This document shows, piece by piece, positions 317 through 56,288 of a stretch of DNA of 64,000 bases (positions are counted from its first letter, which is position 1; the number at the start of each line of letters is the position of its first letter). Both the position numbers and the translations under genes were made by a program. This DNA is from Patescibacteria group bacterium (GTDB lineage: Bacteria > Patescibacteriota > Minisyncoccia > Phycocordibacterales > UBA918). The notes beneath the pieces were generated by a model, which saw only the letters and a list, made by a program, of their open reading frames with translations, ran no database searches and was not told the origin of the DNA. The stretch is from positions 1,383 through 65,382 of the forward strand of contig JAZKFU010000011.1 of the NCBI GenBank assembly GCA_040386275.1, written 5' to 3'.

Positions 317-434
317 GACCTCTGTAAACGACACATTTCGTCGTTACGCTGCTCAAAATAATACTCACCGTACAAGAAGTACGGCTCGCATTATTTTGTT
401 TGCGTGCCTAGAACTGTATTCGTTTACAGAGGTC
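317..434 (-). repeat. family A intergenic structured repeat, copy 1 (reverse orientation)
   Basis: Core tcaccgtacaagaagtacggctc at 365-387 is the reverse complement of GAGCCGTAC-loop-GTACGGTGA, with A/T tracts on both sides. gcctagaac flank. Outer 14 bp inverted repeat acctctgtaaacga (317-330) / tcgtttacagaggt (420-434). Confidence 0.7.
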
Positions 435-453
435 TCTAAAGACATTTACAAAT

Positions 454-1860
454 ATGGATTCATCAACAAGCCGACCTGGTCGGAAACCAGCTTTTTCTAG
501 TCGTCCCCGCTCTGGCGGAGCGTCAACTGGAGGAGCGCGACGATTTAGTAGTTCTGGAAGTCGCGGTGAAAGCGCCTCAGGCGGGCGTTCAAATGAACGT
601 CGTTCATACTCCGCTCCTTCTGCTGACCGCTCAGGTGGTGGACGTAGTTTTTCTAGTCCAGCACAACGTTCTGGCCGACGTCCTTTCTCAAGTGGCAGTG
701 GTCGTGGATCTTCTGCTCGCTCAGGCGGCGGACGAGGCGGACGCAAAATGCAGACGTTTGACGTTTCAAAATACATCAACCTTAACCCGGTAGACACCAG
801 TGCTACGGAAGAAGTGTATAAAGCGACTCACACATTCAAGACATTTGGTCTCGAACAACCACTCGTTACAACAATTACTAACATGGGACTTACTATCCCT
901 TCACCAATTCAAGATCAAATCATCCCGCACATTATGGATGGTCGTGATGTTGTTGGGTTGGCACAAACAGGTACTGGTAAAACAGCTGCGTTTCTTATTC
1001 CCACCATTAACAAAACCCTCAAGCAATATAGTCGACAAACATTGATTCTGGCTCCAACTCGCGAACTCGCGATTCAAGTTGAACAAGAACTCAAGCGTCT
1101 GACTGAAAAAATGAAAATCTTTTCTACTGTCTGTGTAGGAGGAATGAACATCCGTCCACAAATTATGGGCCTTAAGCGTCAAAACCATTTTATTATTGGT
1201 ACTCCAGGACGAGTACAGGATTTAATTGACCGTGGTCACATCAAGCCAGCTGGATTCTCAACTATCATCTTAGATGAAGCTGACCGAATGCTCGACATGG
1301 GATTCATACACGACATGCGCGCTATTCTTAAAGACGTACCGGACCCACACGAAACATTATTCTTCTCTGCGACTATGTCTGACACAGTGAAGGGATTGAT
1401 TCATGAATTCATGAATGACCCAATCACTATTTCAGTACGCAAAAAAGATATTACCGGCAGTATCACCCAAGACGTTGTGTACTACGAACCACACACAAAG
1501 TTTGATACACTCACTGCCCTCCTTAAAAAAGCTGATTTCACTCGTGTCATTATCTTTGGAGCAATGAAGCACAGTGTAGAAAAGTTATCTCAAGAACTTT
1601 CACGCGCTGGTATCAAATCAGACGCCATTCACGGAAACAAGAGTCACCCACAACGACAACGTGCTCTCCAGAACTTCAAGACAGGTCGCGTGCAAGTATT
1701 GGTAGCAACCGACGTAGCCGCCCGTGGTATTCACGTTGACGACGTCTCACACGTCATTAACTACGACCTACCAAATGCCTACGAAGATTATGTTCACCGG
1801 ATTGGGCGGACTGGACGGGCAGATAAGAAAGGGATGGCTTTGACGTTTGTGACCAAGTAG
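454..1860 (+). CDS. DEAD-box ATP-dependent RNA helicase with N-terminal Arg/Ser/Gly-rich low-complexity region (~95 aa)
   Basis: Q-motif region, Walker A AQTGTGKTAAF, DEAD box (ILDEADRMLDMGF), SAT, HRIGRTGRA motif VI. N-terminus is RGG/SR repeats. Confidence 0.9.
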   Translation: MDSSTSRPGRKPAFSSRPRSGGASTGGARRFSSSGSRGESASGGRSNERRSYSAPSADRSGGGRSFSSPAQRSGRRPFSSGSGRGSSARSGGGRGGRKMQTFDVSKYINLNPVDTSATEEVYKATHTFKTFGLEQPLVTTITNMGLTIPSPIQDQIIPHIMDGRDVVGLAQTGTGKTAAFLIPTINKTLKQYSRQTLILAPTRELAIQVEQELKRLTEKMKIFSTVCVGGMNIRPQIMGLKRQNHFIIGTPGRVQDLIDRGHIKPAGFSTIILDEADRMLDMGFIHDMRAILKDVPDPHETLFFSATMSDTVKGLIHEFMNDPITISVRKKDITGSITQDVVYYEPHTKFDTLTALLKKADFTRVIIFGAMKHSVEKLSQELSRAGIKSDAIHGNKSHPQRQRALQNFKTGRVQVLVATDVAARGIHVDDVSHVINYDLPNAYEDYVHRIGRTGRADKKGMALTFVTK

Positions 1861-1861
1861 A

Positions 1862-1985
1862 GACAACTCCCAGAACTGGCGCATTCCGTTGTTGTGCGGC
1901 GCAAAATTATTCTCACCGTACAAAAGTACGACTCGAACAATTTTCCTTGCACGCCTAGGACTGCATCCAGTTCTGAAAGTTGTTC
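1862..1985 (-). repeat. family A repeat, copy 2 (reverse orientation), immediately 3' of helicase gene
   Basis: tcaccgtacaaaagtacgactc at 1913-1934 flanked by aaaattattc / gaacaatttt. cgcattccgttgttg is the reverse complement of the caacaacg flank. gcctagga flank. Outer stem gacaactcccagaactgg / ccagttctgaaagttgttc. Confidence 0.65.
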
Positions 1986-2044
1986 GATGTTTGGCAATTC
2001 AAAAACTACCCAACCTTTAAGTAACTTAGAATGAAAACTAAAAA

Positions 2045-2073
2045 ACACCTCCCGCACAGCGGGAGGTGTTTTT
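2045..2073 (+). terminator. rho-independent terminator after DEAD-box helicase gene
   Basis: acacctcccgc-acag-cgggaggtgt followed by ttttt. Confidence 0.7.
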
Positions 2074-2201
2074 ATGTACAAATGGAAAAAATATGGTACT
2101 CTTTTGGGAATATGAAATTTCTAATTTTAGCGCTCGCTGGCTTTGTACTCTTGATGATTGTTAATTCATTTTTAGTTGGAACTCCAGTCTAATTTCTTTT
2201 T

Positions 2202-3164
2202 GTGATTTATCTTATTTCGCTGTTTCTTATTCTGTGCTCGGCCACGTTCTCGGGTTTGACGTTGGCGTATTTTTCGCTTGATATTGCCTCACTACGAAGA
2301 CGAGCAAACGCCGGTGACCCGCAAGCATTGGCTATCTACCCTCTGCGTGCGAGGGGTAATCTTTTACTCACTACCCTTTTGCTCGGTAATGTGACAGTAA
2401 ATACAATTTTGTCAGTCTTTCTGGGCTCACTGGTAAGTGGCGTATTCGCTAGTTTCCTTGCTACTGCGCTCATTTTCCTTTTTGGAGAAATCGGTCCTCA
2501 AGCTTTGTTTTCACGACATGCCTTAGCCTTTGGTAGCAAGCTAGCTCCTCTCACCCGCTTTTTACTTTTTATAGCATATCCAATCGCCTTTCCCGTAGCC
2601 TATTCTCTTGATCGTCTCTTGGGACATGCAACGCCTTCAATGTACTCCAAGCATGAAATCATGCAGATTATTTCTGAACACGAAGAATCAGAACATAGCC
2701 CCATTGATGCTGATGAGGAACGTATCGTGCATGGCGCCTTACAGTTTTCCCACCTCCAGGTACGCGAGGTTATGACACCAATTGAAAAGGTGGCGATGTT
2801 TGATGAGAATCAAAAATTAACCAATACTTTTTTTGAAGAAGTTTCTGAATTAGGGTACTCCCGCTTCCCCGTTTACAGCGGTAACAATAAAAATATTGTT
2901 GGTGTGTTATTCACAAAAGACCTCTTAACTGAAGACGAGGATATTTCAATCAAACAAACAGAAGATGCCTTTGAGTCAGATATCATGCGTATCCGCCCGA
3001 GCGCATACCTCGATACGGTACTTGCCCGGATGCTCAAGAAAAAACAACATCTCGCCATTGTTGAAAAAAATTCTGGCGAAGCCATTGGTGTAATTTCGCT
3101 TGAGGACATTATTGAAGAGATAATTCAAAGTGAAATTGAAGACGAGGAAGACGCCGAAAACTGA
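2202..3164 (+). CDS. CNNM/DUF21 transmembrane domain + CBS-pair protein (CorC/TlyC-like putative Mg/Co efflux or hemolysin-family)
   Basis: N-terminal multi-TM region with FSGLTLAYFSLD...LLLGN motif typical of DUF21. C-terminal CBS-like repeats and acidic tail. GTG start in ORF track. Confidence 0.7.
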   Translation: MIYLISLFLILCSATFSGLTLAYFSLDIASLRRRANAGDPQALAIYPLRARGNLLLTTLLLGNVTVNTILSVFLGSLVSGVFASFLATALIFLFGEIGPQALFSRHALAFGSKLAPLTRFLLFIAYPIAFPVAYSLDRLLGHATPSMYSKHEIMQIISEHEESEHSPIDADEERIVHGALQFSHLQVREVMTPIEKVAMFDENQKLTNTFFEEVSELGYSRFPVYSGNNKNIVGVLFTKDLLTEDEDISIKQTEDAFESDIMRIRPSAYLDTVLARMLKKKQHLAIVEKNSGEAIGVISLEDIIEEIIQSEIEDEEDAEN

Positions 3165-3272
3165 GCCAACAAACGAAGAGCCTATGGCGAAATTTGTTCC
3201 CAATTTACCCCTTATTCCTAGGGTAAATTGCTGGGACTGGATATCTATTCAATATTCATCAACCTGCAATAC

Positions 3273-3301
3273 TTGATTTTTTCCATAATCTATGGTATTA
3301 T
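3273..3301 (+). promoter_or_regulatory. sigma70-like promoter: TTGATT-17 nt-TGgTATTAT
   Basis: -35 at 3273-3278, extended -10 TGG+TATTAT at 3293-3301, 40 nt upstream of ATG 3341. Confidence 0.4.
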
Positions 3302-3340
3302 ACTGCTCGGTAAGTGCGGCACTAATGCTCGCACGCCAGA

Positions 3341-3670
3341 TTGAGGGATCAAATGAAACTTATCGCAGCAGCAGTTCTTTCACTTTTCGTCGGCAGCCAA
3401 GGCATCGCTCAAGAGCTTTGCACGTGCACCGACCAGGACTTTACCTTCACCACTGAAAACCCCGACCATGAAATATACATGGAGGAGTATCTTTGGGAAG
3501 TAAAATCATGTTCAGGGTCAAAGGTGATCGTGAACCTGATCGGCGAAGACAGCCCTATCCTCGATTCGTATTCTCTGGACGAGGACGGCAACCAAAAATT
3601 GTACTATGAAGGACGTTGGATTCGTTACGACGAGTTCAATCCCATCTGTCAGGATATTCCAACATCCTGA
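3341..3670 (+). CDS. small secreted hypothetical protein (signal peptide, 4 Cys)
   Basis: N-terminal KLIAAAVLSLFVGSQGIAQE signal-like sequence. No recognisable domain. Confidence 0.5.
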   Translation: MRDQMKLIAAAVLSLFVGSQGIAQELCTCTDQDFTFTTENPDHEIYMEEYLWEVKSCSGSKVIVNLIGEDSPILDSYSLDEDGNQKLYYEGRWIRYDEFNPICQDIPTS

Positions 3671-4597: not shown

Positions 4598-4713
4598 GTT
4601 TCAAAAGTGCTTTAGATACAAGGCGCATGAGTTAAATAAGCTGAGCCGTACTTTTTGTACGGTGAAGAATATTTAGCGAAATGCAACGCCGTAGATGAAG
4701 TGCTTTTGAAACA
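4598..4713 (+). repeat. family A repeat, copy 3 (forward), abutting stop codon of GH15 gene
   Basis: caaggcg, then aaataagct-GAGCCGTAC-ttttt-GTACGGTGA-agaatattt (4643-4665), then caacgccgtagatgaagtgc. Outer stem tgtttcaaaag (4598-4608) / cttttgaaaca (4703-4713). Confidence 0.7.
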
Positions 4714-4714
4714 A

Positions 4715-6682
4715 TTACCGCAGGCTCGATAATTTCTTCAAGTAGGAATCTACTGTCAAAACATACTCGGCATGACTCCAAATTAGTGGCGACGTCGAAA
4801 GATGCTCTCTCGTATGCGGATGCATCTGCTCTGAAAGAGTCCCGGTTGATGACGCGTGTGAGGCGGTCCATTCTAACAACTCGAGCGCTGGTTTTAAATC
4901 AGCTGCTTTTTTAGCGTTAACTATATAGTACTGAGCAATCCACAACGTACAAATCACCCACGGATTGGGACTTCCGGCTTCTTGCATCGTGTAGTAGCGA
5001 TCATGCTGGTATCGGACAAAGCCTTTGCTACTACCTTCAACTTGTAATACCTTTTCAATCGTTTTAAGCGACGTTTTGACAAGAGCATCATCTGATTCGA
5101 GAACTCCAAAAAATACTACCCCGTGGAAACTACTGGCATCAATGGTGCGATCAAACACCAATTCCCCATCCTCAGTGTGCGTAACATGCTTCACAAACAT
5201 TTTGATATCAGGATCATACAACACACCCACAATCGCTTTTTGCATACGTTCCGCTACGGCCAAACAGGTTCGAGCGTCATTTTCCTTTCCAAGTAAACTT
5301 GCAAACCGAACAGCGGCCATCAGTCCGCCATAGACCGATGAAGCAGTGTAGGTTGAGGTACCATACTTTTCTTCCCATAAATCAAAAGATGCGGATGGTA
5401 AGCCCGTTAAAGGCTCGATGTAGTCACACAGGAACTTGGCCGCCGGCTCAATAAAAGAATTGTAATGTGCTTCAATAAATTCTAAATTTTTGGTGAGCTC
5501 ATAGTGCCGCCACAACATAAATAACACACTGGCCGTTTCATCTTCTTGAATTGGTAGGAAAGCTTTTCCATGTTGGAGCCACGGGTGCCAGGAACTACCC
5601 AAACTACCATCGGTTAAATACTTATGCATCAAATACCCAGCGGGTTCTTGGCACCGTGCCATAAAGGCAAAGAAACGTTCCGCCACTTCACTGTATCCAA
5701 CAGCATCAAGGGCGTGCGCTACCAGGGCGCCATCACGTGGCCAGACGTAACTATAAGTGTCGCGGCCATGGTGCAACATGTCGGTATCTGAGCTCGCAAT
5801 AATTCCTCCGCGGTTGTCAGTATGAACCCGGATAATTGCCAAAGACCGTCGGTAGAGGGTTTGCAAATCTTGCCCGAGCATTGAAATATCCCGTCCATTT
5901 TTATTAAGCCAGGCTTTCCAGTAGGCGTCCGTTGCTTGCCTGAGTCTATCAGGGGTTTCCTCAATCACCATCGCATCGAGCGTATGTACAGCCGGAATAG
6001 AACGACCACACGCGATCCAGTAAGAAATATCGGCGCTCGCACCTGCTTCCAGCTGACACGTAAACCCAAGTACTGAATCGACTGATCCGTGTTCAATTGG
6101 GTTTCGCTCCAAGACACCATCATGGGCGTCATGCCACGCACCGTCACGCCCCTCGATACCAAACAACCCAATGGTGTAATCTGTAAATTGTTTGCCGTTA
6201 TGGGTGGCGTTTATTAAAAAAGTATCTTCACCTTTGTAGTGAATAATTGCTCCCACCCGTGGATCGTAAAAAGCAGTGTCGCCACGTCTAGATTCATCTA
6301 TCCGAAATTGCTGGGCGAGATATAATTTGATTTCTTGCGCTTCATTCGACGTGTTCGTCACGGTAAACTGACGAATAAATACATCGTGTTCATTATGGAC
6401 GGCGTCACGACTCGACAGAGTTACACCTAAACCTTCATGAACAGCGGTAAAATTACCCAAGACACTATCCCCGACTGCTCCAATAGTAATGTCCCACGCA
6501 GGGTCATCAAGCCAGGAAATTACTCCCTCTACATACACACCAATACGGTGCACAAAAATACCACTCGCTCCACTGACGTGATTAGTTTGCCCAACGTACG
6601 GCCAATACAAATCACGTACTTGCCCGCGGTAGTCCATACCGACCAGCATGTTTCCGTTCCCTAGAGTAAGTGCGCGCGCCAT
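4715..6682 (-). CDS. glycoside hydrolase family 15 (glucoamylase/glucodextranase-like)
   Basis: SFDLWEEKYG catalytic-region motif and (alpha/alpha)6-barrel-like length. Start moved to MARALTLGNG (6682), because the upstream gene's stop is at 6685-6687. Confidence 0.7.
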   Translation of the reverse strand: MARALTLGNGNMLVGMDYRGQVRDLYWPYVGQTNHVSGASGIFVHRIGVYVEGVISWLDDPAWDITIGAVGDSVLGNFTAVHEGLGVTLSSRDAVHNEHDVFIRQFTVTNTSNEAQEIKLYLAQQFRIDESRRGDTAFYDPRVGAIIHYKGEDTFLINATHNGKQFTDYTIGLFGIEGRDGAWHDAHDGVLERNPIEHGSVDSVLGFTCQLEAGASADISYWIACGRSIPAVHTLDAMVIEETPDRLRQATDAYWKAWLNKNGRDISMLGQDLQTLYRRSLAIIRVHTDNRGGIIASSDTDMLHHGRDTYSYVWPRDGALVAHALDAVGYSEVAERFFAFMARCQEPAGYLMHKYLTDGSLGSSWHPWLQHGKAFLPIQEDETASVLFMLWRHYELTKNLEFIEAHYNSFIEPAAKFLCDYIEPLTGLPSASFDLWEEKYGTSTYTASSVYGGLMAAVRFASLLGKENDARTCLAVAERMQKAIVGVLYDPDIKMFVKHVTHTEDGELVFDRTIDASSFHGVVFFGVLESDDALVKTSLKTIEKVLQVEGSSKGFVRYQHDRYYTMQEAGSPNPWVICTLWIAQYYIVNAKKAADLKPALELLEWTASHASSTGTLSEQMHPHTREHLSTSPLIWSHAEYVLTVDSYLKKLSSLR

Positions 6683-6684
6683 AG

Positions 6685-7113
6685 TTAGTAGGAGTACTTC
6701 TTGAGGTGTTTCACCACTACCGCTTGCGCTGTTTTGGCAGTTTTGCACGTCCGTAAATCTACCGCACAGTCAATATCACCCAACACATCATCCACCCAAT
6801 TAGCAAAATCGTGTCGTCCGTTATTAGTGTGGTATTTATACACAGCTGCATCCATTCCCCGCAAGGCTCCTGCTAAAGCCACCAGTGTATTTAAAATCTG
6901 TCCATCGTTCATCCAAAAAGAATTGTGACTGGAGGCCACGACGAGCGTTTTGAGAGCGGGGGCTGTACTGGTTTTTTTGGCTACCGTTTTAGGAGCAGCT
7001 AGTTTTTTTACCGCCGGCTTTACTGGTTTTGTTATCACTTTTTTAGCAACCGCTTTTTTTGGAGTAGCTTTGGCCACTTTTTTTGCTGCTACTTTTTTTG
7101 TTGTTGTTTTCAT
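6685..7113 (-). CDS. hypothetical protein with Lys/Ala-rich histone-H1-like N-terminal tail (AKK repeats) and ~80 aa C-terminal globular part
   Basis: [25 protein letters not shown]... low-complexity tail. Sits between GH15 and GH57 genes. Confidence 0.5.
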   Translation of the reverse strand: MKTTTKKVAAKKVAKATPKKAVAKKVITKPVKPAVKKLAAPKTVAKKTSTAPALKTLVVASSHNSFWMNDGQILNTLVALAGALRGMDAAVYKYHTNNGRHDFANWVDDVLGDIDCAVDLRTCKTAKTAQAVVVKHLKKYSY

Positions 7114-7126
7114 ATTAAAGAACTAA

Positions 7127-8530
7127 TTATTTACGATGGAACATTGACCAGATCTTCCCTCCTATAACCGACCGTCGCAACCATGATTCCAATCTCATCT
7201 TTAGGGTCAACTGTACGGTGACTAACTCAATTGGTGGCGTCGGTTTGTGATTGACCGTCAATATCGTTTGCGCCACCTCCTCTTTTACTTTTATTTTTTT
7301 GGCTTGCTCGACTTTTTTAGCCCGAACTTTTGCGACTCTCGCTGCTACTCTTAATTGTAAATCAGAAAGCGCATTCATAAAGGCGATATACGCGTCATAT
7401 GGGGATTGGTACGGACTGAAGTACGCGTGCACATCGCCGTCGTTTGACCATTTGGTACACATGTAATAAAAGTGGTCAGAGGTTTGGAGCTTCCGCCAAA
7501 TTTCAGTCAGTTCCTTATCATTAATTTCCATGATGTCAGCTTCAAGCGCATAAATTTTTCCAAGCGCGTCACGCTGAATATCATTCCCCGTCCAGGCAGT
7601 GAGATCGCGATCAGTATCAGCCCAGGTCAACACATCAGGTACATCATACTCACCCGTTGATGAATAACTTTGAATTGTTTCCGTAGGAGTTTTAAAACTA
7701 GTATCAGGGTGTTTGAGAATATTCGCTGGTAACGCGCGCAAAAAATTAAAAATACCAGTATCTTCCCATTGGTGTTCACCAAAGGTTTCGTAGTCCATAA
7801 AAAGATTGACGGTCTCGCCATTCCCATGGTGTGCATGGACCCAGTCAGCAAACGTCTCGGCTTGGAGGGGAAAACTTTCCCATGCCTGGTTACCAAATCG
7901 AAAGGCTACGTCATCCGAAAGCTTATAGTTTTTAAGCAGTACCTTAATTTTGTCACAGCCTTTTGGTGAATACACGTAATTTGGACTTCGCCATCCGAGA
8001 TACTTGTCCCAACCTTCAGCCATGATGCCTAGGTAGCCATTGTCTTCACACCATTTTGCCAAGTCATTACGATACGACAATTCAGTATTTCGAAATACGC
8101 GGGGCGTGACGCCAAATAATGATTTGATACGCTTTTTGTGCTTGTCTACCTGACGCTCAAATTCTGGCACCGAGTAAAAGAACGCCAGCGAGTGGTGGTA
8201 GGTGTCAGCCAAAATCTCTACCCGCCCGGTAGCGACTAGTTCTTGAAACGATTCTAATACGTCAGGCACATACGCTTCGAATTGATCAAGAGCGGTCCCC
8301 GAGAACGACAGGGCAAATCGAAATTCTGGATGTGTATCAAGCAGTTCTTTTAAGATTTTATTAGTGGGACGATATGATTTATTCGCAACCTTATCAATAA
8401 TGCGACGATTGTTTAAATCAGTTTCACTATTGTCATTAAAATACTCAGTGTCGTTTCCAATATCAAAAACACGATACTGCTTAACGCGGTATGGTTGATG
8501 CACGTGAAAGTAAGGACAAACAGATAACAT
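7127..8530 (-). CDS. glycoside hydrolase family 57-like (alpha-glucan-active)
   Basis: N-terminal YFHVHQPYR (conserved HQP motif of GH57). Adjacent to GH15 and a GlgA-like gene. Confidence 0.6.
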   Translation of the reverse strand: MLSVCPYFHVHQPYRVKQYRVFDIGNDTEYFNDNSETDLNNRRIIDKVANKSYRPTNKILKELLDTHPEFRFALSFSGTALDQFEAYVPDVLESFQELVATGRVEILADTYHHSLAFFYSVPEFERQVDKHKKRIKSLFGVTPRVFRNTELSYRNDLAKWCEDNGYLGIMAEGWDKYLGWRSPNYVYSPKGCDKIKVLLKNYKLSDDVAFRFGNQAWESFPLQAETFADWVHAHHGNGETVNLFMDYETFGEHQWEDTGIFNFLRALPANILKHPDTSFKTPTETIQSYSSTGEYDVPDVLTWADTDRDLTAWTGNDIQRDALGKIYALEADIMEINDKELTEIWRKLQTSDHFYYMCTKWSNDGDVHAYFSPYQSPYDAYIAFMNALSDLQLRVAARVAKVRAKKVEQAKKIKVKEEVAQTILTVNHKPTPPIELVTVQLTLKMRLESWLRRSVIGGKIWSMFHRK

Positions 8531-9914: not shown

Positions 9915-10094
9915 ATGTCACAAGATTTACTCGTAAAGTTGGTTTCAGCCGGAAACGCTAAAGGCGTTGGTAAAGGCCACGTTTACTACACTCGTTTTAA
10001 CAATAAGGTAAAGAAAGACCCAAGTAAGAAGTACGAAACCAAAAAGTTCAACCCAATCGCCAAAGAACACACAGTCTATAAACAAAAGAAGTAA
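9915..10094 (+). CDS. rpmG: 50S ribosomal protein L33
   Basis: MSQDLLVKLVSAGNAKGVGKGHVYYTRFNNKVKKDPSKKYETKKFNPIAKEHTVYKQKK matches the bL33 pattern (K.LVS...GHFY.T..N......KLEL.KFDP....H..YKE). Start trimmed to ATG 9915. Confidence 0.75.
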   Translation: MSQDLLVKLVSAGNAKGVGKGHVYYTRFNNKVKKDPSKKYETKKFNPIAKEHTVYKQKK

Positions 10095-10126
10095 CAAAAA
10101 GCCCCGCAAGGGGCCTTTTTGTTTTT
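10095..10126 (+). terminator. rho-independent terminator after rpmG
   Basis: aaaaagccccgcaaggggcctttttgttttt. Confidence 0.75.
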
Positions 10127-10175
10127 CTTTCATAATTTAAAACTCTCAATCATCGATACGTGTTCATAAAATCGA

Positions 10176-10268
10176 TAAGCTACAAGGCGGCAAGGAGTAC
10201 CGGCCGGAGCCGTTCATCTGAACGGTGACAACGGTACGACGCTGCTAACGCAGTAGATTGCGGTTTTT
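10176..10268 (+). repeat. family A repeat, copy 4 (forward), immediately 3' of aldolase gene stop
   Basis: ctacaaggcgg, then hairpin GAGCCGTTCA-tc-TGAACGGTGA (10207-10228) with arms changed in a compensatory way, then ctaacgcagtagattgcgg + ttttt. Confidence 0.6.
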
Positions 10269-10279
10269 GGACGCGTTCC

Positions 10280-11399: not shown

Positions 11400-11492
11400 A
11401 AGCCTTAGATGGGGGTCCAGTGATTTTCCCAAGGAAAGAAAAAATCAGGACATAAATTCAGAATAATCACTACGTTCATTTCTTCATTCAAT
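11400..11492 (+). repeat. family B intergenic repeat, copy 1
   Basis: agatgggggtccagtgattttcccaaggaaagaaaaaatcaggacataaattcagaataatcactacgttcatttcttcattc. Hairpin tgattttcc/gaaaaaatca. Confidence 0.65.
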
Positions 11493-16840: not shown

Positions 16841-17003
16841 GCTTCGAAAGCACTCAATATCACCCATTCTGCTTTGTTGGGTGATAAAAAATTTTGTTCA
16901 ATGTGCAATAAGCACACCTCACAATATTTTTCATCACCCGTCGCGCATCTCGGGTAATCTTGAGCACTCGTGATATAATTGATTTCTCAACCATTTTTCT
17001 CTT

Positions 17004-17950: not shown

Positions 17951-17977
17951 AAAAGGAGCGGCCCCCGCTCCTTTTTC
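17951..17977 (+). terminator. rho-independent terminator
   Basis: aaaaggagcggcccccgctcctttttc. Confidence 0.7.
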
Positions 17978-18021: not shown

Positions 18022-18141
18022 CTAAACGTCTTAAATTGCTTTAGCTGCTAGGCGCGACCGAGTGAGCGTATGAGCCGTACATCGGTACGGTGAAAAGCGA
18101 GCGACCGAGCAACAACGCAGATGAAGTGATTTAGACGTTTA
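18022..18141 (+). repeat. family A repeat, copy 5 (forward), overlapping stop codon of uppP
   Basis: gctttagctgctaggcgcgaccgag, then GAGCCGTAC-atcg-GTACGGTGA (18072-18093), then gcgaccgagcaacaacgcagatgaagtgatttag. Outer stem aaacgtcttaaat / atttagacgttt. Confidence 0.7.
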
Positions 18142-25848: not shown

Positions 25849-25981
25849 GGAAGTATTGTAACAAACCCGAAGCCCGAAGCCCGGCGTTTGTTCAACACCC
25901 CTACCTAAATAATTGTAACCAGTCAAAAACCGCCAAAGGCGGTTTTTGCTTTTTCTAAATTCCACCATCTCCGAAAAGGTT

Positions 25982-26095
25982 TCAAAACGTGGGTAGATGC
26001 AAGGCGCGCAAGGAAGTTGCTGCGAGCCGTACTTACTGTACGGCGAGCTTCAACTTGCCGCAGTCGCAACGTAGCAGATGCGTGCGTTTTGGAAG
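25982..26095 (+). repeat. family A repeat, copy 6 (forward), immediately 3' of rpoD stop
   Basis: gatgcaaggcgcg, then GAGCCGTAC-ttact-GTACGGCGA (26024-26046), then cgcaacgtagcagatgcgtgcg + tttt. Outer caaaacg/cgttttg. Confidence 0.65.
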
Positions 26096-26101
26096 CTCTG
26101 T

Positions 26102-27508
26102 TTAGTAGCTCTTTAATCTCCGCGCTTTCTCGTGCTGTCTGATTTTTTCGAGAGCCTTCGCCTCAATCTGTCGAATACGTTCTCGCGTTACCCCAAACTC
26201 CTTCCCTACTTCTTCTAATGTATGGTAGGTTCCATCGAGCAGTCCATGACGCATTTCGAGAATCTTTCGTTCTTTTTCTGAAAGCGTATCGAGAATTTCG
26301 GTAATTTGATCAGTTAAGATACTGTGTGATACTTCTTGGTCTGGTGAGGTAATTTTATCGTCAGCGATAAAGTCAGACAATCGTGAGTTATCGTCCTCGT
26401 CTCCAATTGGGAGCTCGAGCGAAATGGTGTCCTGACTAATTTTTTCAATTTGATAAATCTTTTCAACTTCAACACCCATTTCAGTGGCGATTTCTTCAGG
26501 CATTGGATCTCGTCCTAAATCTTGTGACAAACGGCGTGAGACTTGTTTGTACTTGGCCATAGTTTCCACCATGTGCACCGGAATACGAATCGTTCGTGAC
26601 TGGTCAGCGAGCGCACGGGTAATAGCTTGTCTAATCCACCAGGTAGCGTAGGTAGAGAATTTAAAACCTTTTGTGAAGTCGAATTTATCTACCGCTTTAA
26701 AGAGACCGAGGTTACCTTCTTGAATAAGGTCAAGGAGAGTCAGATCCGGAGACCGACCAACGTACTTTTTAGCAATCGAAACTACCAATCGTAAGTTAGC
26801 GCGCGCGAGTAGGTTACGAGCTTCTTCATCACCATCAACAATTCGTTTAGCTAAAACTCGTTCTTCGTGCGCATTTAACAGTGGGTACTGTCCAATTTCG
26901 CGGAGGTACATTTGAATTGAATCGTAACTACTTTCATTTCGCTTAAACGCATTCTTTTGCGCGAGTAATTCTTCGGCTGGATCGTCCCCCAGCATTCCGC
27001 CAGATTTTAATACATCAATCCCCGCTACGTTAAAACGCTCGTAGAGATCATCAAGAAACATCACATCCTTTTCAATTTCAGGAAAAGAACGAAGTAGTTC
27101 ATCGTACGTCACATAGCCTCGTTCACGTCCAAGTTTCATTAATTCAGCTGCTTTGAGTTCAAGTACTTTTTCACTCTTGGTTAATTTTTTCGGAATAACT
27201 GGTACTACTTTTTTAACCACTGGTGCAGGCGTAGCTTTTTTTACCACGACTTTTTTTGCCACTGATTTGGTCGGAGTAACTACTTTCTTGACTGCTTTTT
27301 TAGGCACGACTTTTTTAGCCGCTACCTTTTTAGGTGCTGCTTTTTTTACGACCTTCTTAACCTCCTTCTTCACGGCAACCTTCTTTACGACTTTTTTTGG
27401 TGCGACGACTTTTTTGTTAGTCTTTTTTGCTACCGGTTTTTTTGTGACTTTAGGAGCGGTTTTGGCCGCTTTTTTACTGCTTGAATTGGCTTTTTTCTTG
27501 ACTGCCAT
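26102..27508 (-). CDS. rpoD: RNA polymerase sigma-70 factor (RpoD-like) with ~115 aa Lys/Ala/Val/Pro-rich basic N-terminal extension
   Basis: Regions 1.2-4 conserved ([35 protein letters not shown], region 4 HTH). N-terminus is a KKxxAKK repeat in place of an acidic region 1.1. Confidence 0.9.
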
Positions 27509-27544
27509 AGATACGCACTACTATACAGAAAATCCCAAAAATGT

Positions 27545-27674
27545 CCACCCTGAGCTTCACAAATGGCATATTTCGTTGTTGCTCTACATAAAATAAAATT
27601 CACCGTATAAAAATACGGCTCATCTTATTTTATTTGATCGCCTAGAACTATGTCCATTTCTGAAACTCAGGGGA
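27545..27674 (-). repeat. family A repeat, copy 7 (reverse), between dnaG stop and rpoD start
   Basis: tcaccgtataaaaatacggctc (27599-27620) flanked by aaaataaaat / atcttatttt. cgcctagaa. Outer stems ccctgagcttc (27548-27558) / gaaactcaggg (27663-27674). Confidence 0.65.
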
Positions 27675-27679
27675 TTTGG

Positions 27680-29884: not shown

Positions 29885-29907
29885 ACCCTGAATTCAATTT
29901 TCAAGTA

Positions 29908-29937
29908 GAAGGCCGTGGGATCTCCCATGGCCTTTTC
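29908..29937 (+). terminator. rho-independent terminator
   Basis: gaaggccgtggga-tctc-ccatggcctt + ttctgttt. Confidence 0.6.
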
Positions 29938-29972
29938 TGTTTATAAATCAGTACTAAACTTATAACAAAACA

Positions 29973-29996
29973 AAAACCGCTGAAAGGCGGTTTTTG
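29973..29996 (+). terminator. second (bidirectional) hairpin terminator
   Basis: aaaaaccgc-tgaaa-ggcggttttt. Confidence 0.6.
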
Positions 29997-30049
29997 TTTT
30001 CACTAAATTCTATACTCCCCACTTTCGCAAATTAGAGGAATTTCAATAC

Positions 30050-30150
30050 GTATTCAGATGCTAGGCGGACAAGAAAAAAGACCCCGAGCGGTACCTGATG
30101 TACCGTGAGGGTCTTTTTTCGCAGGCCAACAACGCAGATGAGTGCGTAGT
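30050..30150 (+). repeat. family A repeat, copy 8 (forward), 3' of rpoC; contains canonical bidirectional intrinsic terminator
   Basis: gatgctaggcgg, then aaaaaagacccc-GAGCGGTAC-ctgat-GTACCGTGA-gggtctttttt (30074-30119), then caacaacgcagatgagtgcgtag. Stem is a compensatory variant (cggtac/gtaccg). Confidence 0.75.
30074..30119 (-). terminator. rpoC intrinsic terminator (embedded in family A copy 8)
   Basis: A6 + 17 bp stem + T6. Reads as terminator on both strands. Confidence 0.75.
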
Positions 30151-30160
30151 GGAATTTCTC

Positions 30161-44219: not shown

Positions 44220-44297
44220 ATTTCACCTCAACGAGTACAAGTTCCAGGAGTTTGGCCTAGGAAAGGGCCAAACTCGGAACAAAATTCGCAATATGCC
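44220..44297 (+). repeat. tandem structured repeat, unit 1 (~78 nt)
   Basis: atttcacctcaacgagtacaagttccag, then hairpin gtttggcc-taggaaa-gggccaaac (44250-44273), then tcggaacaaaattcgcaata. Confidence 0.55.
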
Positions 44298-44332: not shown

Positions 44333-44410
44333 AATTTCAACGATTTCAGGTTCTAGCAATTTGCCCTAGGAAAAAGGGGCAAATTGAGAACAAAATTCGC
44401 AATACACCCT
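44333..44410 (+). repeat. tandem structured repeat, unit 2 (~78 nt), followed by UUCG-loop hairpin at 44404-44418
   Basis: aatttcaacgatttcaggttctagc, then hairpin aatttgccc-taggaaaaag-gggcaaatt (compensatory changes relative to unit 1), then gagaacaaaattcgcaata. Then acaccc-ttcg-ggtgt + T-rich. Confidence 0.55.
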
Positions 44411-44427
44411 TCGGGTGTTTGCTCATT

Positions 44428-46683
44428 TTATTTCGCAACAGCCAATGCATCCTCGAACTTTACTGAGAGCAATTTAGATACCCCATCACTCCCCATAGTT
44501 ACACCATACAAAATTCCCGCTCGACTCATAGTTTCGCGATTGTGGGTAATTAAAATTAGTTGGGACTTTTCTGACAGAGCCTGAATCATATCACCGTAGC
44601 GCCGACTGTTGGCTTCGTCTAAAGCAGCGTCTGTTTCATCGAGGATAATAAACAGGGGTGGATTGACCTGACTCATCGCAAAGATTAAGGCGATTGATGT
44701 TAGAGCACGTTCACCACCGGACAACATCTCGAGCCCTTTCACGCGCTTGTTTGGTAACGCGACATCAAGTTCCACCCCTTCCTCCTTCCCTTCTTCTTCA
44801 GACAATGTTTCTGCTCCTTCATCATCAATTACTTTTACTTTTGGCTTCACTCGTTTAAGCTCTGCTTTTCCCCCGCCAAACATCAAGACAAAGAACCGAT
44901 TGAACTCGGTACCAATTTTATCAATCCCGGCGATAAATCGTTCGTTTAACTGGGCGTTTAATTCGGTGATGAGTGACTCTAATTTTTCAACTGAACTTTC
45001 TAAATCACTAATTTCGCGCGCCAAAAACTGATCTCGCTCTTCAGCATCTTTATGCTCCTTAAGCACGTCTTCGGTAGCACCAATCCCCAATTCTTCGAGT
45101 CTTATTTTTAATTTCTCAAGCGCCCGTCTGCGATCACGTTGTATACTTCGATCTTCATTTACAATTTGCTCAGTTGAAACCGCTACTCCATTGTCGATGA
45201 TTTCGTAATTAAAATACTGAGCGGCGGCACTTTTGATTAAGGTGACTGCTTCTTGTAACTCTTGTTTAAATTCATCACGGTCCCGTTCTAGTACAAATAA
45301 TTCCCGATCAATTTTCTCGAGTTCTATATCAACCAGACGTTGCTCGCTCACGAGCGAAAAAACGGCTCGTTCAGCATCGCGATTATTCAAAGCTTCGGCT
45401 TCAATGGACGCTTTAAGCGCATCGTATGCAGACTGTGCGATTTGTTCTTTTTGTTGTGCTGCTTGATGGGCTGATTCAAGGCTTTTATTTTGTTGCGTTA
45501 ATTCTCGCAACTCTGCTTCTTCAGCTTTAGTATCTTCAAGCGCCGTTGGTTCGTTGCGGGTAATAAAGACCTTAAGGGTATGCACGATATCGGACAAAGC
45601 CCGTTTAAGTATCGCCACATCGTCACGCTTGAGCGCTTTTTCAACCTCACTTTCAATTGTAGTGATGAGTGACTCGTATGACGCGACATTCACAAATTGC
45701 GTTTGGGTCGTTGGCTTTTGTTGTTGCTTAGCTTCAATGCGCTTGGTAACGTACGCAATTTGTCCCTCGAGTTGATTGAGGGCGCGAAAGGCTGATTGCC
45801 GTGCGGACCGGGCATTTGCTAAGTTTTCTTCAGCTTCACTCACCGCTGAGTTACCTGATTTATTTTCTGCTTTTCGTAACGTATCTTTGGCTTCGGCAAG
45901 TTGCTGCGCTAATTTTTCTTTGAGTTCAGAGGGGGTACGTCTCGCTTCCTTTAAGGCATCAACATGGTACGCAATGTACGTGTCTTCTCGTTTAAGGTAT
46001 TCGGCATAGACTGATTTTAATTCCGCTTGGACTTGCAGAGATTTCTCAACGCGCGCCACTTGTTTTTTGAGGTATGCTAAATGCGGTGCGTGTTCTCGCC
46101 TGAGTGACTGCACCTGTTCGATATTTCCTTTAGTTTTTTCGAGTTTCTTTTCTGCTTCGTTCTTTTTGTATTGATACACTTTGAGTCCCAAGGCATCTTC
46201 AATCATTTCACGACGTTCGCGGCCTGAAGCAGAGAGAATCCGGTCGGCTTCCCCTTGAGAAATAATATGATGCCCAGTTGAACCTATATTAGCGGCCGCC
46301 AGTAGTTCTTGAACATCCTTTAACCGTACCTGGGAATCATTAATAAAATATTCATTTTGTCCATCGCGATGGACCACGCGCTCAATTTTGATACTATCAA
46401 AATCTACTCCAAATACCCGCTTGGTATTGTCGAGCATCACGGATACCGAGGCTCGGTTTCCCCGAGACACTGATTCCGAACCACCCCAGATTAAATCTTC
46501 TCCGCGCTTTCCACGCAATGACTTAACAGACTGTTCCCCGAGTACAAACCGAAAGGCTTCAGCGACGTTACTTTTCCCTGAACCATTTGGTCCGACAATT
46601 GAGGTAATGGGTGCAGAAAATTCCAGCTCGCTCTTTTTAGCAAAAGATTTAAAACCATTAATACTGAGTTCTTGAAGGTACAT
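44428..46683 (-). CDS. SMC-family chromosome segregation ATPase (short form, 751 aa)
   Basis: N-terminal Walker A GPNGSGKSNV. Long coiled coil. C-terminal signature LSGGERALTSIAL and Walker B FIILDETDAALD. Confidence 0.7.
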   Translation of the reverse strand: MYLQELSINGFKSFAKKSELEFSAPITSIVGPNGSGKSNVAEAFRFVLGEQSVKSLRGKRGEDLIWGGSESVSRGNRASVSVMLDNTKRVFGVDFDSIKIERVVHRDGQNEYFINDSQVRLKDVQELLAAANIGSTGHHIISQGEADRILSASGRERREMIEDALGLKVYQYKKNEAEKKLEKTKGNIEQVQSLRREHAPHLAYLKKQVARVEKSLQVQAELKSVYAEYLKREDTYIAYHVDALKEARRTPSELKEKLAQQLAEAKDTLRKAENKSGNSAVSEAEENLANARSARQSAFRALNQLEGQIAYVTKRIEAKQQQKPTTQTQFVNVASYESLITTIESEVEKALKRDDVAILKRALSDIVHTLKVFITRNEPTALEDTKAEEAELRELTQQNKSLESAHQAAQQKEQIAQSAYDALKASIEAEALNNRDAERAVFSLVSEQRLVDIELEKIDRELFVLERDRDEFKQELQEAVTLIKSAAAQYFNYEIIDNGVAVSTEQIVNEDRSIQRDRRRALEKLKIRLEELGIGATEDVLKEHKDAEERDQFLAREISDLESSVEKLESLITELNAQLNERFIAGIDKIGTEFNRFFVLMFGGGKAELKRVKPKVKVIDDEGAETLSEEEGKEEGVELDVALPNKRVKGLEMLSGGERALTSIALIFAMSQVNPPLFIILDETDAALDEANSRRYGDMIQALSEKSQLILITHNRETMSRAGILYGVTMGSDGVSKLLSVKFEDALAVAK

Positions 46684-48749: not shown

Positions 48750-48838
48750 TCTCGAAGTGCGGTCCAGCGATTTTCCTTAGGAGGAAAAATCGGGACATAA
48801 ATTCAGAATAATCGCTACGCTCATTTCTTCATTCACCA
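48750..48838 (+). repeat. family B intergenic repeat, copy 2
   Basis: ctcgaagtgcggtccagcgattttccttaggaggaaaaatcgggacataaattcagaataatcgctacgctcatttcttcattc. Hairpin cgattttcc/ggaaaaatcg. Confidence 0.65.
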
Positions 48839-55025: not shown

Positions 55026-55067
55026 CGTGCTATATTGCTCCGAGAAACTCATAAGGAGCACATAACA

Positions 55068-55538
55068 ATGCAAGGACAGCAACTTGGCGTCATCAACTCT
55101 ATGACTCAATCTGAAGTAAACGTTTCGGATTTAGTGTCGGCTCATGAAGATTTGTTCTATCAACAAAAAGCTTCCAACTTTTCACATCAGGTTTTTACTG
55201 AAAGGAGATTTTTAAACCGTCAGATTGTTAATGACTACACAAAAGCCTTTGAAGCTCAGCGACTTGATTTTGGACGTTCACACAATATGCCCGAGGACAA
55301 AATTCTTAATCCGACATTCCCTCTATTGGAAACGATGGCGTGGTGGATTGCCTACACTCGTAGTCGGGAAGTTGGTCACGGTATGCGTTCATATGTCACA
55401 CCTACTTCAACATATATCGAGGGGCATCGATTGGGTGTTGCGTTACTCGTTAACGAATGTCTCCGAGTTGCATATACCTTTGTAGCACGGGAAGTTGTTT
55501 CCCCTCATAATCAAATCTGGCCCGCAATCACATGGTGA
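55068..55538 (+). CDS. hypothetical protein
   Basis: AAGGAG RBS at 55053-55058. Stop overlapped by terminator hairpin. Confidence 0.45.
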   Translation: MQGQQLGVINSMTQSEVNVSDLVSAHEDLFYQQKASNFSHQVFTERRFLNRQIVNDYTKAFEAQRLDFGRSHNMPEDKILNPTFPLLETMAWWIAYTRSREVGHGMRSYVTPTSTYIEGHRLGVALLVNECLRVAYTFVAREVVSPHNQIWPAITW

Positions 55539-55546
55539 TTGCGGGC
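55518..55546 (+). terminator. rho-independent terminator (perfect palindrome)
   Basis: ggcccgcaatcaca-tg-gtgattgcgggcc + ttatgtatt. Confidence 0.6.
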
Positions 55547-55640
55547 CTTATGTATTAAATATAAAACAAATAAAATATTGGCTTTTATAATAAAAGACGG
55601 TATCCTTGTACGTATGTCATCATTAGAATCAGGAGGAACG

Positions 55641-55883
55641 ATGCCCGATAAAAAAGAAATGATAGTTTCAACCGAAGAGTTGGGAGCAGTATCTAAAGAA
55701 TTAGAAGATAACGCCAATGAAAAGCCAGCTCTCGCTATGTTCTTGGCAAAGCTCCTGGAATCTCCTGAAGCTGACGCCAAAACGCTCGCGGTGGTAGAAA
55801 AAATTGTTCGCAATGAAGCAAGCCCCGAAGAAGTAACCCTTCTGCAAGACAGTCTCGCGCAGTGGATTAATGGAAATCGCTAA
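55641..55883 (+). CDS. hypothetical small acidic protein
   Basis: AGGAGG at 55631-55636. Alternative start 55614. Confidence 0.4.
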   Translation: MPDKKEMIVSTEELGAVSKELEDNANEKPALAMFLAKLLESPEADAKTLAVVEKIVRNEASPEEVTLLQDSLAQWINGNR

Positions 55884-55887
55884 CAAC

Positions 55888-55913
55888 ACGCGCCCGCAAC
55901 CGGGCGCGTTTTC
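55888..55913 (+). terminator. rho-independent terminator
   Basis: acgcgcccg-caac-cgggcgcgt + tttc. Confidence 0.7.
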
Positions 55914-55927
55914 TTATGCCTGAGCAA

Positions 55928-56155
55928 GTTGACCTTTACTCTACAAAAAGCTACCATACTACCACTTCAGAGATTGTGATGGCTACCACCCATCAGTTTG
56001 ACTAATCATCAGTCAGACGGAAATTTCCCTAATCTGCAATACAAAGAGCGTAGACAGCAGACTGTCACGAAGCCCGGTGGAACCGCGTTAGAGACCTTGT
56101 TCTCAATCGTCCGAGCGAACACACAAATTTTTGTGTAGTCGCTCGGGCGATTTTT
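55928..56155 (+). promoter_or_regulatory. candidate T-box-like leader upstream of thrS
   Basis: TTGACC at 55928. AGAGA + GUGA and ACCA (Thr codon ACC + A) candidates in 55940-55975. cccGGTGGAACCGCG at 56073-56087 matches the T-box core GGUGGNACCGCG. Terminator ccgagcga...tcgctcgg + ttttt at 56108-56155. Confidence 0.3.
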
Positions 56156-56185
56156 ATTACCAATAATTACCAACTAGACGTTCAG

Positions 56186-56288
56186 AATCAAATGCAGTAC
56201 GCGGCATGGAGAAAAAGAGTTGTGAGCCGTATGCCTATACGGTGAATAAATCTTAGAGGCTCTATAACAAAGTAACGCATTGATTGTG
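56186..56288 (+). repeat. family A repeat, copy 11 (forward), between leader terminator and thrS start
   Basis: gcggcatggag, then GAGCCGTAT-gcc-TATACGGTGA (56224-56245), then ctataacaaagtaacgcattgattg. Outer aatcaaatgc / gcattgatt. Confidence 0.55.

Follow-up and report, generated by a model that had tools for sequence, protein, structure and literature searches.

An uncatalogued family of dispersed extragenic hairpins with a conserved structure, abundant in Patescibacteria

We analyzed a stretch of 64,000 nucleotides (nt) from a Patescibacteria group bacterium (assembly GCA_040386275.1, contig JAZKFU010000011.1, positions 1,383 to 65,382 of the forward strand), hereafter the window, in which a preliminary description had pointed out a structured intergenic repeat, called here family A. 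We found that family A is an uncatalogued family of dispersed extragenic hairpins with a conserved structure, abundant in Patescibacteria (also known as the candidate phyla radiation, CPR). The selection that maintains it bears on one specific strand, which lies mostly antisense to the neighboring gene and ends at the stop codon of that gene. Our preferred, still tentative reading, to which we would give a probability of about 0.4, is by analogy that of a REP/REPIN-like element with attC-like geometry, which a trans-acting factor would recognize in its folded single-stranded form, probably as DNA.

Two covariance models were used, R1 made from the first 11 copies and R2 made from 133 family members, the latter being run on the window with filters off. 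Family A totaled 13 copies in the window, 12 solid ones with R2 scores of 67–108 bits and a chimeric one with 26.6 bits, and the unfiltered R2 search returned no further window copy with E < 0.09. The 11 copies claimed in the preliminary description were all present at the coordinates and on the strands given, and their shared layout could be aligned. All copies in the window are intergenic. They are listed below with their R2 scores and, in brackets, their limits in the preliminary description when these differed.

Copy 1, 318–432, minus strand (317–434): 106.9 bits, fold of −60.2 kcal/mol, z −10.2; antisense within the 5′ leader of a DEAD-box helicase gene (start codon 454), with its 5′ end 21 nt from the start codon and without an adjoining stop codon.
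Copy 2, 1866–1979, minus strand (1862–1985): 107.7 bits, folded individually; 3′ end ~5 nt from the DEAD-box helicase stop (plus strand, ends 1860), a canonical terminator then following at ~2040–2075.
Copy 3, 4598–4713, plus strand: 103.5 bits, fold z −9.2; between the convergent truB (plus) and GH15 (minus) genes identified with Pfam, 3′ end 1 nt from the GH15 stop at 4715.
Copy 4, 10162–10274, plus strand (10176–10268): 69.8 bits; 3′ end 5 nt from the class-I aldolase stop (minus, 10280), with a small rpmG-like gene (9915–10094, plus) and its terminator on the 5′ side.
Copy 5, 16850–16966, minus strand (absent from the preliminary description): 58.9 bits with R1 and 73.7 with R2, fold of −61 kcal/mol; 3′ end 9 nt from the histidyl-tRNA synthetase stop (plus, ends 16840), 5′ end 38 nt from the next gene start.
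Copy 6, 18027–18139, plus strand (18022–18141): 67.3 bits; the BacA/UppP stop codon (minus, 18139–18141) falls within its outer stem.
Copy 7, 25979–26096, plus strand (25982–26095): 82.4 bits; 3′ end 5 nt from the rpoD stop (minus, 26102), with a bidirectional terminator at 25924–25948 on the 5′ side.
Copy 8, 27553–27666, minus strand (27545–27674): 102.7 bits; sense-oriented between dnaG and rpoD (both minus), AT-rich interior subtype with a terminator-like look.
Copy 9, 30040–30156, plus strand (30050–30150): 95 bits; 3′ end 4 nt from the rpoC stop (minus, 30161), with two canonical terminators on the 5′ side.
Copy 10, 39149–39263, plus strand (39170–39250): 74.4 bits, fold of −45 kcal/mol; intercistronic between khpA and a NUDIX gene (both minus) and antisense to both, the khpA stop at 39255 lying within its 3′ arm.
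Copy 11, 40312–40426, plus strand (40310–40427): 96.4 bits, folded individually; sense-oriented just upstream of the RNase R gene, divergent from rpsP.
Copy 12, 56179–56293, plus strand (56186–56288): 82.1 bits; sense-oriented upstream of an open reading frame (ORF) starting near 56280, with a terminator-like hairpin ~50 nt off its 5′ side.
Copy 13, chimeric, 58240–58372, plus strand: 20.8 bits with R1 and 26.6 with R2, assigned from sequence and fold; 3′ end 5 nt from the stop of the 58378–60906 gene (minus).

Together, the 13 copies make up 1515 nt, that is, 2.4% of the window, with a spacing of ~5 kb. The core pattern GAGCCGTA-N3-9-TACGGTGA occurred 5 times in the window versus none in 100 shuffles. 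Copy 10, which had been called degenerate, turned out to be a normal member at 74 bits. The genes of the window are housekeeping ones, with rpoB/C-sized ORFs, rpoD, dnaG, hisS, class-I aldolase, truB, trmD, rpsP, khpA, and RNase R among others, as well as an AddA-like helicase-nuclease; ARAGORN found neither tRNA nor transfer-messenger RNA (tmRNA) genes in the 64 kb.

Each copy is a rod hairpin of about 105–130 nt, the full hairpins that were measured having 105–128 nt. Eight copies were folded singly and each gave one long imperfect hairpin, at −44 to −60 kcal/mol with z from −4 to −10. The anatomy given here is read from 5′ to 3′ on the folding strand, that is, the strand assigned in the preliminary description. 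Outermost is an outer stem of ~13–20 bp whose sequence is not conserved, followed by a purine–purine mismatch and by a 3-bp clamp (NNC/GNN) with free covariation at its middle pair. Next comes a conserved asymmetric internal loop, in which 5′ (U/A)AGGCG, or WAGGCG, faces 3′ CAAC(AAC). This loop exists as two subtypes, CUAGGCG occurring together with CAACAACG and CAAGGCG together with CAACG. Further inside are the variable stems P2 and P3 and an almost invariant apical module made of a tandem G·A/A·G and a 7-bp GCCGUAC/GUACGGU stem closed by a conserved G·U, on top of which sits an apical loop of 4–8 variable bases. Thus, every copy has two modules, a frame running from the outer stem to the internal loop and an interior comprising P2, P3, and the apical module. 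In copy 11, the conserved parts read from the sequence are as follows.

40333–40339, plus strand: 5′ loop, CTAGGCG.
40357–40379, plus strand: apical module, GAGCCGTAC-TTTTT-GTACGATGA.
40398–40405, plus strand: 3′ loop, CAACAACG.

The compensatory variants of the central hairpin that had been reported earlier were present, namely, cggtac/gtaccg in copy 9, ccgttca/tgaacgg in copy 4, and ccgtat/atacgg in copies 8 and 12. Alignment and folds likewise bore out the outer inverted repeats that differ from copy to copy. Two other meanings of the apical motifs were ruled out, a K-turn by inspection of the tandem G·A, which has no 3-nt bulge, and TadA-type editing of UACG, this motif being within a stem. 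The hairpin termini showed no base preference at their first or last 10 positions and no flank consensus in 126 copies, in agreement with the earlier view that the element has no fixed terminal inverted repeats.

That structure rather than sequence is conserved, as had been proposed, was supported by very strong covariation. We counted pairs in a 133-sequence alignment (the window and 99 other loci), the full hairpin being taken from the minimum-energy fold of one copy. Canonical pairs filled 83.6% of the 5553 pair cells, as compared with 59% after column shuffling and 35–38% when partners were slid by 1–3 columns. The covariation score was 0.60 versus 0.19 in shuffled and ~0.10 in slid alignments, double changes were observed at 43 of 43 pairs, and none of 500 shuffles attained any of the observed values of five measures. 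The alignment was fitted by a model holding a partial version of the structure, which inflates the pairing somewhat, but the margin far exceeds such a bias. The hairpin structure is therefore under selection. Indeed, the 12 solid copies of the window are only 38–70% identical pairwise and yet kept their pairing, so that pairing has been maintained through extensive divergence. The same holds between orthologous copies, as copy 2 differs from its counterpart L112:103–217 by compensatory changes.

The selection is asymmetric between the two strands. On the folding strand, we counted 464 G·U/U·G cells plus 125 at the conserved closing pair, that is, 589, versus 138 A·C/C·A cells. Single pairs switched among U·G, U-A, and C-G, or between G·U and A-U, a series that is wobble-neutral on the folding strand only. 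Folding as RNA favored the model strand over its complement in 130 of 132 copies (mean energies of −54.3 and −41.9 kcal/mol, respectively). The reverse complements of the window copies were left unscored by R2, except for a 14-bit partial match at 16885–16934 (plus strand, E 0.63). Deamination of cytosines exposed on the coding or lagging-template strand would give the opposite bias, and the asymmetry thus argues for selection on the single-stranded form of the folding strand. A cruciform, which the preliminary description had offered as the alternative to RNA, cannot explain such an asymmetry; together with a double-stranded operator or protein-binding site, it was ruled out on this ground and because loop lengths range from 4 to 8 nt.

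The placement of the copies relative to genes was also strand-specific. In tandem gene contexts, the folding strand was antisense to local transcription in 58 cases and sense in 21, and there were in addition 29 convergent and 9 divergent contexts. An opposite-strand ORF ended between −11 and +7 nt from the 3′ end of the model in 82 of 123 copies. When the true hairpin base was taken as the reference, 76 of 80 copies had the stop codon at −16 to +9 nt, and in about half of these it was within the outer stem. Nine of the 13 window copies adjoin an opposite-strand stop (those of the genes for the DEAD-box helicase, GH15 protein, aldolase, HisRS, BacA/UppP, RpoD, RpoC, and KhpA and of the 58378–60906 gene), one is antisense in the helicase 5′ leader (copy 1), and three are sense-oriented (one between dnaG and rpoD and the other two ahead of RNase R and of the 56280 ORF). 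Because of this mostly antisense placement at stops, most host mRNAs carry the reverse complement of the element between their stop and the terminator or the next cistron. Recoding at the adjoining stop, either SECIS-type or by read-through, was ruled out, as stops were TAA in 24 cases, TAG in 19, and TGA in 5. Gene direction fits the orientation of 10 of the 13 window copies and the replichore that of 9 of 13, two factors that are not separable here. Conservation did not depend on context: pairing (0.81–0.85) and core bases (11.4–11.6 of 12) were the same in antisense-tandem, sense-tandem, convergent, and divergent positions.

The 5′ side of the element faces a spacer of ~90–100 nt. Canonical terminators occurred in ~20% of the 5′ flanks family-wide, and at least 7 of the 13 window copies had one 25–60 nt away. 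The bidirectional intrinsic terminators of the window, each composed of an A-tract, a G+C hairpin, and a T-tract, were at the following positions.

~2040–2075
~10100–10125
~17953–17977
25924–25948
29907–29936
~29975–30000
~58095–58125
~58190–58215

Judging from these signals, the genome uses canonical terminators alongside the elements. No conserved promoter was found on the 5′ side, a promoter-like site on either strand being present in 17 of 126 copies; −10-like hexamers were mildly enriched 20–50 nt upstream. There was no enrichment in T after the hairpin. A promoter or a terminator as a constant part of the unit was thus ruled out (17 of 126 copies and ~20% of 5′ flanks, respectively). The preliminary description had seen in several copies a bidirectional terminator, and this look was found in 5 of the 12 window copies, in which A/T tracts surround the apical hairpin. 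Family-wide, such tracts occurred in 16 of 128 copies, where they mark an AT-rich interior subtype, and separate terminators stood near at least 7 of the 13 window copies. The earlier impression is explained by the over-representation of the AT-rich subtype in the window. As an identity for the family, the intrinsic terminator was ruled out by these counts and by the lack of a T-rich stretch after the hairpin.

Some observations concern individual contexts. The spacer following copy 5 (16967–17003) contains an extended −10 (TGATATAAT), for which any −35 would sit in the outer arm of the element. On the 5′ side of copy 4, the 59-codon ORF at 9915–10094 (plus strand, MSQDLLVKLVSAGNAKGVGKGHVYYTRFNNKVKK...), shorter than the ORF-length cut-offs used, was judged from its peptide to be probably that of ribosomal protein L33 (rpmG); it comes with its own TTGAC-N17-TACAAT promoter and canonical terminator, and its presence turns the context of copy 4 from tandem to convergent. 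The antisense rule was also observed outside protein contexts, in a 23S–5S spacer and in the gap between a cobalamin riboswitch and its gene. The former belongs to a Yanofskybacteria rRNA operon (locus L058), in which the element at 5038–5152 (plus) is antisense to transcription between the 5S (4695–4806, minus) and 23S (6239–8000, minus) genes. The latter is in a 248-kb Syntrophomonas contig (L067), in which the element at 6931–7047 (plus) lies between a cobalamin riboswitch aptamer at 7091–7277 (minus; RF00174, 95 bits) and an 823-amino-acid gene that the aptamer presumably controls; the element is antisense there and thus inside the expression platform or leader.

We then turn to the distribution of the family. 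An exact pattern over the 5′ loop and the apical hairpin, scanned against 185,579 species genomes, was found in at least 115 loci. Among the matches listed, nearly all were from Patescibacteria metagenome-assembled genomes (MAGs), and the lineages included Kaiserbacteria, Saccharibacteria, Paceibacterota, Zambryskibacteria, Uhrbacteria, Yonathbacteria, and Peribacteria. A few of the listed records were labeled Rokubacteria, Treponema, Syntrophomonas, Clostridia, or Bacillota; the Rokubacteria-labeled ones have 65–70% G+C and are thus not mis-binned CPR. The complete architecture, beyond the pattern alone, was present in 116 of 116 pattern matches. With R1 at E < 1e-3, we counted 133 copies in the window and 99 loci and 21 more in the other 16 loci, and many 8-kb loci carried 2–4 copies. 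The core motifs were unchanged across genomes of 32% to 70% G+C. No exact-pattern match was found in 2.9 million viral contigs.

Exclusion of known RNA families was a check that had been proposed at the outset. Rfam 15 in gathering mode returned no family anywhere in the 64-kb window and none at the position of the element in 18 loci, and sensitive mode returned only chance matches (E > 0.7) in window positions 25900–27750 and none in 1–460. The literature searched by topic and by sequence words contained no description of family A. The core of the preliminary description was therefore upheld, since covariation is present, copies extend beyond the window to at least 115 loci, and neither an Rfam family nor a MITE (miniature inverted-repeat transposable element) terminus was matched. 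The dispersed extragenic hairpin repeat is a known kind of element; what is new, in the resources searched, is the combination of a phylum-wide structure with diverged copies, a modular frame and interior, a strict strand asymmetry, and an antisense placement at stops.

Comparison with relatives revealed gain and loss of copies. Among the matches listed, those closest to the window were L110 (~90% DNA identity), L012 (86%), and L011 and L112 (~80%), which come from a Patescibacteria MAG and from MAGs of Kaiserbacteria. L110 has a full element, outer stem included, at a site where the window has none, and unrelated sequence where the window has copy 4. In the one filled/empty pair (L110 versus the window), the empty site showed no target duplication and no stem-derived sequence, which ruled out, for that pair, the outer stem as an inverted target duplication.

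Copies also changed by parts. Copy 8 was 90% identical to its ortholog L011:725–838. Copy 9 and L011:2338–2452 shared 93% of their frame and 27% of their interior, and copy 7 and L012:6937–7052 shared 91% and 29%, respectively. The reverse pattern was seen for copy 6 and L001:4345–4456, with 97% identity in the interior and 49% in the frame, the frame identity of this reverse pattern being 40–49% overall. Similarly, copy 4 and the orthologous copy in L013 have the same outer stem and different interiors. These sequence comparisons indicate that frame and interior evolve as separate modules. Larger units were exchanged as well, since the element and 5′ flank that follow rpoD in the window follow rpoC in L012 and those that follow rpoC in the window follow rpoD in L011. 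The units concerned are as follows.

L011, 2334–2527: exchanged unit.
L012, 6937–7103: exchanged unit.
Window, 25924–26096: post-rpoD unit.
Window, 29964–30160: post-rpoC unit.

The rearrangement junction was apparently at the 3′ end of the element, beside the stop codon. The exchange in L011 and L012 means that elements coincide with rearrangement junctions.

A second dispersed repeat, family B, of ~72–80 nt (GAATGAAGAAATGAGCGTAGCGATTATTCTGAATTTATGTCCCGATTTTTCC...GGAAAATCGCTGGA, often flanked by CCG/CGG), was noticed at the following positions.

Window, 11410–11489, minus strand.
Window, 48755–48834, minus strand.
Window, 58265–58344, minus strand.
L036, 5815–5903.

It nests in family A. In the chimeric copy 13, the family A frame is intact (outer stem and GTGCTAGGAG ... 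CACAACGCAATTC) and family B occupies the place of the interior; in L036, family B lies in the 3′ outer arm of a family A element.

How these observations fit together is best approached from the strand under constraint. Since mRNAs usually do not contain the folding strand and copies are equally conserved in all contexts, single-stranded DNA is a better candidate for the selected form than a cis-acting mRNA element. Moreover, the equal conservation of sense and antisense copies, the presence of terminators upstream, and the lack of a promoter suggest that the constraint does not depend on transcription. Gain and loss, module exchange, and nesting, added to this preference for folded DNA, lead to the REP/REPIN-like picture with attC-like geometry. 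In such a scenario, one specific strand would fold into the hairpin, and a trans-acting structure-specific protein, postulated by analogy, would read the conserved loop and the apical module, the stems having only to pair. The element would be non-autonomous, with copies gained, lost, and re-assorted at gene ends, and it would be tolerated mainly in the orientation that places its weaker complement in mRNAs, where the reverse complement after the stop codon would incidentally act as a 3′ hairpin.

Several points weigh against this REP/REPIN-like reading. Among the neighboring ORFs of the 115 loci, no transposase, HUH nuclease, or recombinase was seen beside any copy. No long autonomous version, with frame halves around an ORF, was found in ~0.9 Mb of flanking DNA. 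Conserved termini and target-site duplications were not found either in the DNA examined, that is, the flanks of 60 of 126 copies by eye and the composition of all 126, no direct-repeat search having been run. The divergence of copies within a genome is far above that of REPINs or active MITEs and fits a locus-by-locus function at least as well. GC skew and gene directions place the folding strand of most copies (9 of 13) on the presumed leading-strand template, and IS200/IS605-type single-strand transposition predicts the opposite strand. Last, G·U wobble tolerance and a tandem G·A beside a G·U are classic RNA features, which are compatible with DNA and not diagnostic.

A structured non-coding RNA made from the folding strand is the main rival, a serious one although we hold it for somewhat less likely. 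It could be an insulator of antisense transcription, or factor-dependent terminator, stopping polymerases that leak past terminators or fire divergently before they enter the adjacent gene antisense, or it could be a family of small protein-bound RNAs. The RNA-like covariation with G·U intermediates at many pairs, the tandem G·A with its G·U cap, and the conserved asymmetric internal loop, as found in protein-binding RNAs, would all be natural here. So would the exact coincidence of the hairpin 3′ end with the end of the opposite-strand ORF, where an antisense block is most useful, and the mild excess of −10-like hexamers 20–50 nt upstream. However, no promoter recurs at a constant distance (17 of 126 copies have a promoter-like site, both strands considered), the hairpin has no trailing U-tract, and the terminators upstream of at least 7 window copies lead one to expect little folding-strand RNA. 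The ~27% of copies that are sense-oriented are equally conserved, although the insulator logic does not apply to them, and extrapolation of the window density gives more than 100 such RNA genes per ~1-Mb genome, which would be unprecedented. The preliminary description had opposed a functional RNA to a mobile element, a dichotomy that is too clean, since the elements, by their gain and loss, module replacement, and nesting, behave like mobile or recombining DNA.

Rather improbable is the view that the selected form is the hairpin in the mRNA after the stop codon, in the 3′-untranslated region (3′-UTR) or between cistrons, acting as exonuclease stabilizer, processing site, or terminator. REP and ERIC elements act in this manner, the family A element is mostly transcribed with the upstream gene, between the stop and a terminator or between cistrons, its reverse complement still folds at ~−42 kcal/mol, and the AT-rich interior subtype looks like a bidirectional terminator. 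But on the mRNA strand, the G·U pairs become A·C mismatches (589 versus 138), so that evolution there is not wobble-neutral; this strand gives the weaker fold in 130 of 132 copies, the terminator-like configuration is limited to 16 of 128, and any hairpin would do, which leaves the conserved loops and apical sequence unexplained. A simple 3′-UTR-end or terminator RNA, one of the possibilities raised earlier, is therefore insufficient, the folding strand being mostly antisense to the adjacent gene. A role of the complement as an mRNA 3′ hairpin may well exist as a side effect; it does not explain which strand is constrained. The classical MITE, derived from an insertion sequence and moved by a DDE transposase via terminal inverted repeats, with the hairpin as a by-product, would account for multiple intergenic copies, for presence/absence between relatives, and for nesting with another repeat. 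This reading is largely refuted and we hold it for very unlikely, since the outer stems, that is, the ends, are the least conserved part, without terminal consensus or detected target-site duplication, whereas conservation is internal and strand-specific. Copies that are 38–70% identical yet remain paired also speak against it, as does the lack of a related transposase gene or long version in the ~0.9 Mb of flanking DNA. We give hardly any credit to true integron-like attC sites that would mark gene cassettes by their folded bottom strand. The geometry is the same (3′ of an ORF, folding of the complementary strand, structure above sequence, similar length), and units of flank and element were apparently exchanged between rpoD and rpoC ends in related genomes. 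Yet no RYYYAAC/GTTRRRY pair exists at the base of the hairpin, conservation being central and not basal; the flanks are syntenic housekeeping genes in both orientations (rpoB/C, rpoD, dnaG, hisS, aldolase) and not a cassette array; and no integrase was seen in the neighborhoods of the elements.

The REP/REPIN-like reading can be set against known systems. REP, BIME, and REPIN sequences, mobilized by RAYT (Y1/HUH) transposases in proteobacteria, are like family A high-copy extragenic hairpins at gene 3′ ends and between cistrons; they are also present in mRNAs and differ in presence/absence among strains, REPs are recognized as folded single strands, and a REPIN is a ~100-nt hairpin. REP units, however, are 20–40 nt long and tagged by GTAG or CGTC, and in a REPIN they form a symmetric inverted doublet, whereas the arms of family A differ (WAGGCG versus CAAC(AAC)) and at the tag-equivalent position AG alone is conserved. 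REPINs are also near-identical within a genome and clustered on a master sequence, in contrast to the 38–70% identical, covarying copies of family A (13 window copies). Among the neighboring genes in the window and the 8-kb loci, no RAYT gene was noticed. ERIC/IRU, Correia (NEMIS), and RUP elements have a similar size (100–170 bp) and are, like family A, imperfect palindromes in transcribed intergenic regions that form RNA hairpins, and we count orientation-dependent effects on mRNA as a trait that they would share with it. Yet ERIC, Correia, and RUP are conserved in sequence, with terminal inverted repeats and TA-like target duplications, whereas family A conserves structure and a few internal motifs and has variable ends.

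Integron attC sites resemble family A in lying directly 3′ of an ORF, in folding productively only on the ORF-complementary strand, in conserving structure above sequence, and in using unpaired bases as recognition features. The arrangement is reversed, since attC has a conserved basal R box (AAC/GTT) and a variable center, whereas the conserved AAC of family A is unpaired in the internal loop. Single-strand origins of the ssoA type and primosome assembly hairpins, known from plasmids and phages, share with family A strand specificity, orientation dependence, a size of ~100–150 nt, conserved unpaired motifs, and variable stems, but a replicon has a single one, situated on whichever strand becomes single-stranded, and family A is chromosomal with about one copy per 5 kb, mostly on the presumed leading-strand template. 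We also take the GAGCCGUAY...RUACGGU apical module, as a lead only, to resemble the lower helix of group II intron domain V, with its AGC triad and G·U. The 2-nt bulge, distal helix, GNRA loop, and other intron domains are missing from family A, and sensitive Rfam searches of four copies (window 25900–27750 and 1–460) matched no intron family.

A bolder possibility, which we regard as quite unlikely, is that family A reveals an undescribed structure-specific single-strand recognition system typical of CPR. It would be either a chromosomal recombination or transposition machinery reading folded DNA at gene ends or a new class of structured antisense RNAs, protein-bound and with more than 100 copies per ~1-Mb genome. 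In its DNA form, this machinery might re-assort interior modules and flanks, that is, apply an attC-like logic to housekeeping genes. If true, either form would mean that a major trait of genome biology has gone unrecognized in a quarter of bacterial diversity.

Family A matters beyond this question. These are streamlined genomes of ~1 Mb, and yet ~2.4% of the window is given to one structured element. Hundreds of diverged copies with one architecture constitute a large natural data set for covariation, and the selected strand poses a puzzle by being antisense to the neighboring gene and ending at its stop codon. Since there is no Rfam model, the family is a practical target for annotation. 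The factor that reads it could reveal a mechanism of mobile DNA that operates without terminal repeats or duplications, or a new RNA–protein system in organisms that are hard to study. Finally, the elements mark rearrangement breakpoints, which makes them relevant to MAG assembly and synteny analysis.

Clustering of 882 ORFs from the 115 loci yielded no shared neighbor protein family, and the seven commonest neighbor clusters were all housekeeping ones according to Pfam. Another repeat, family C, was noticed in the window as two tandem hairpins of ~65 nt at 44223–44293 and 44338–44429 (plus strand), with a similar sequence in L111 at 3036–3132. Its layout is GTTCYAG-stem-CCTAGGAAA-stem-GAGAACAAAATTCGCAATA, and its flank words resemble the frame of family A (GTTCTAG ... 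AACAAAAT), suggesting that family C may be a smaller relative of family A.

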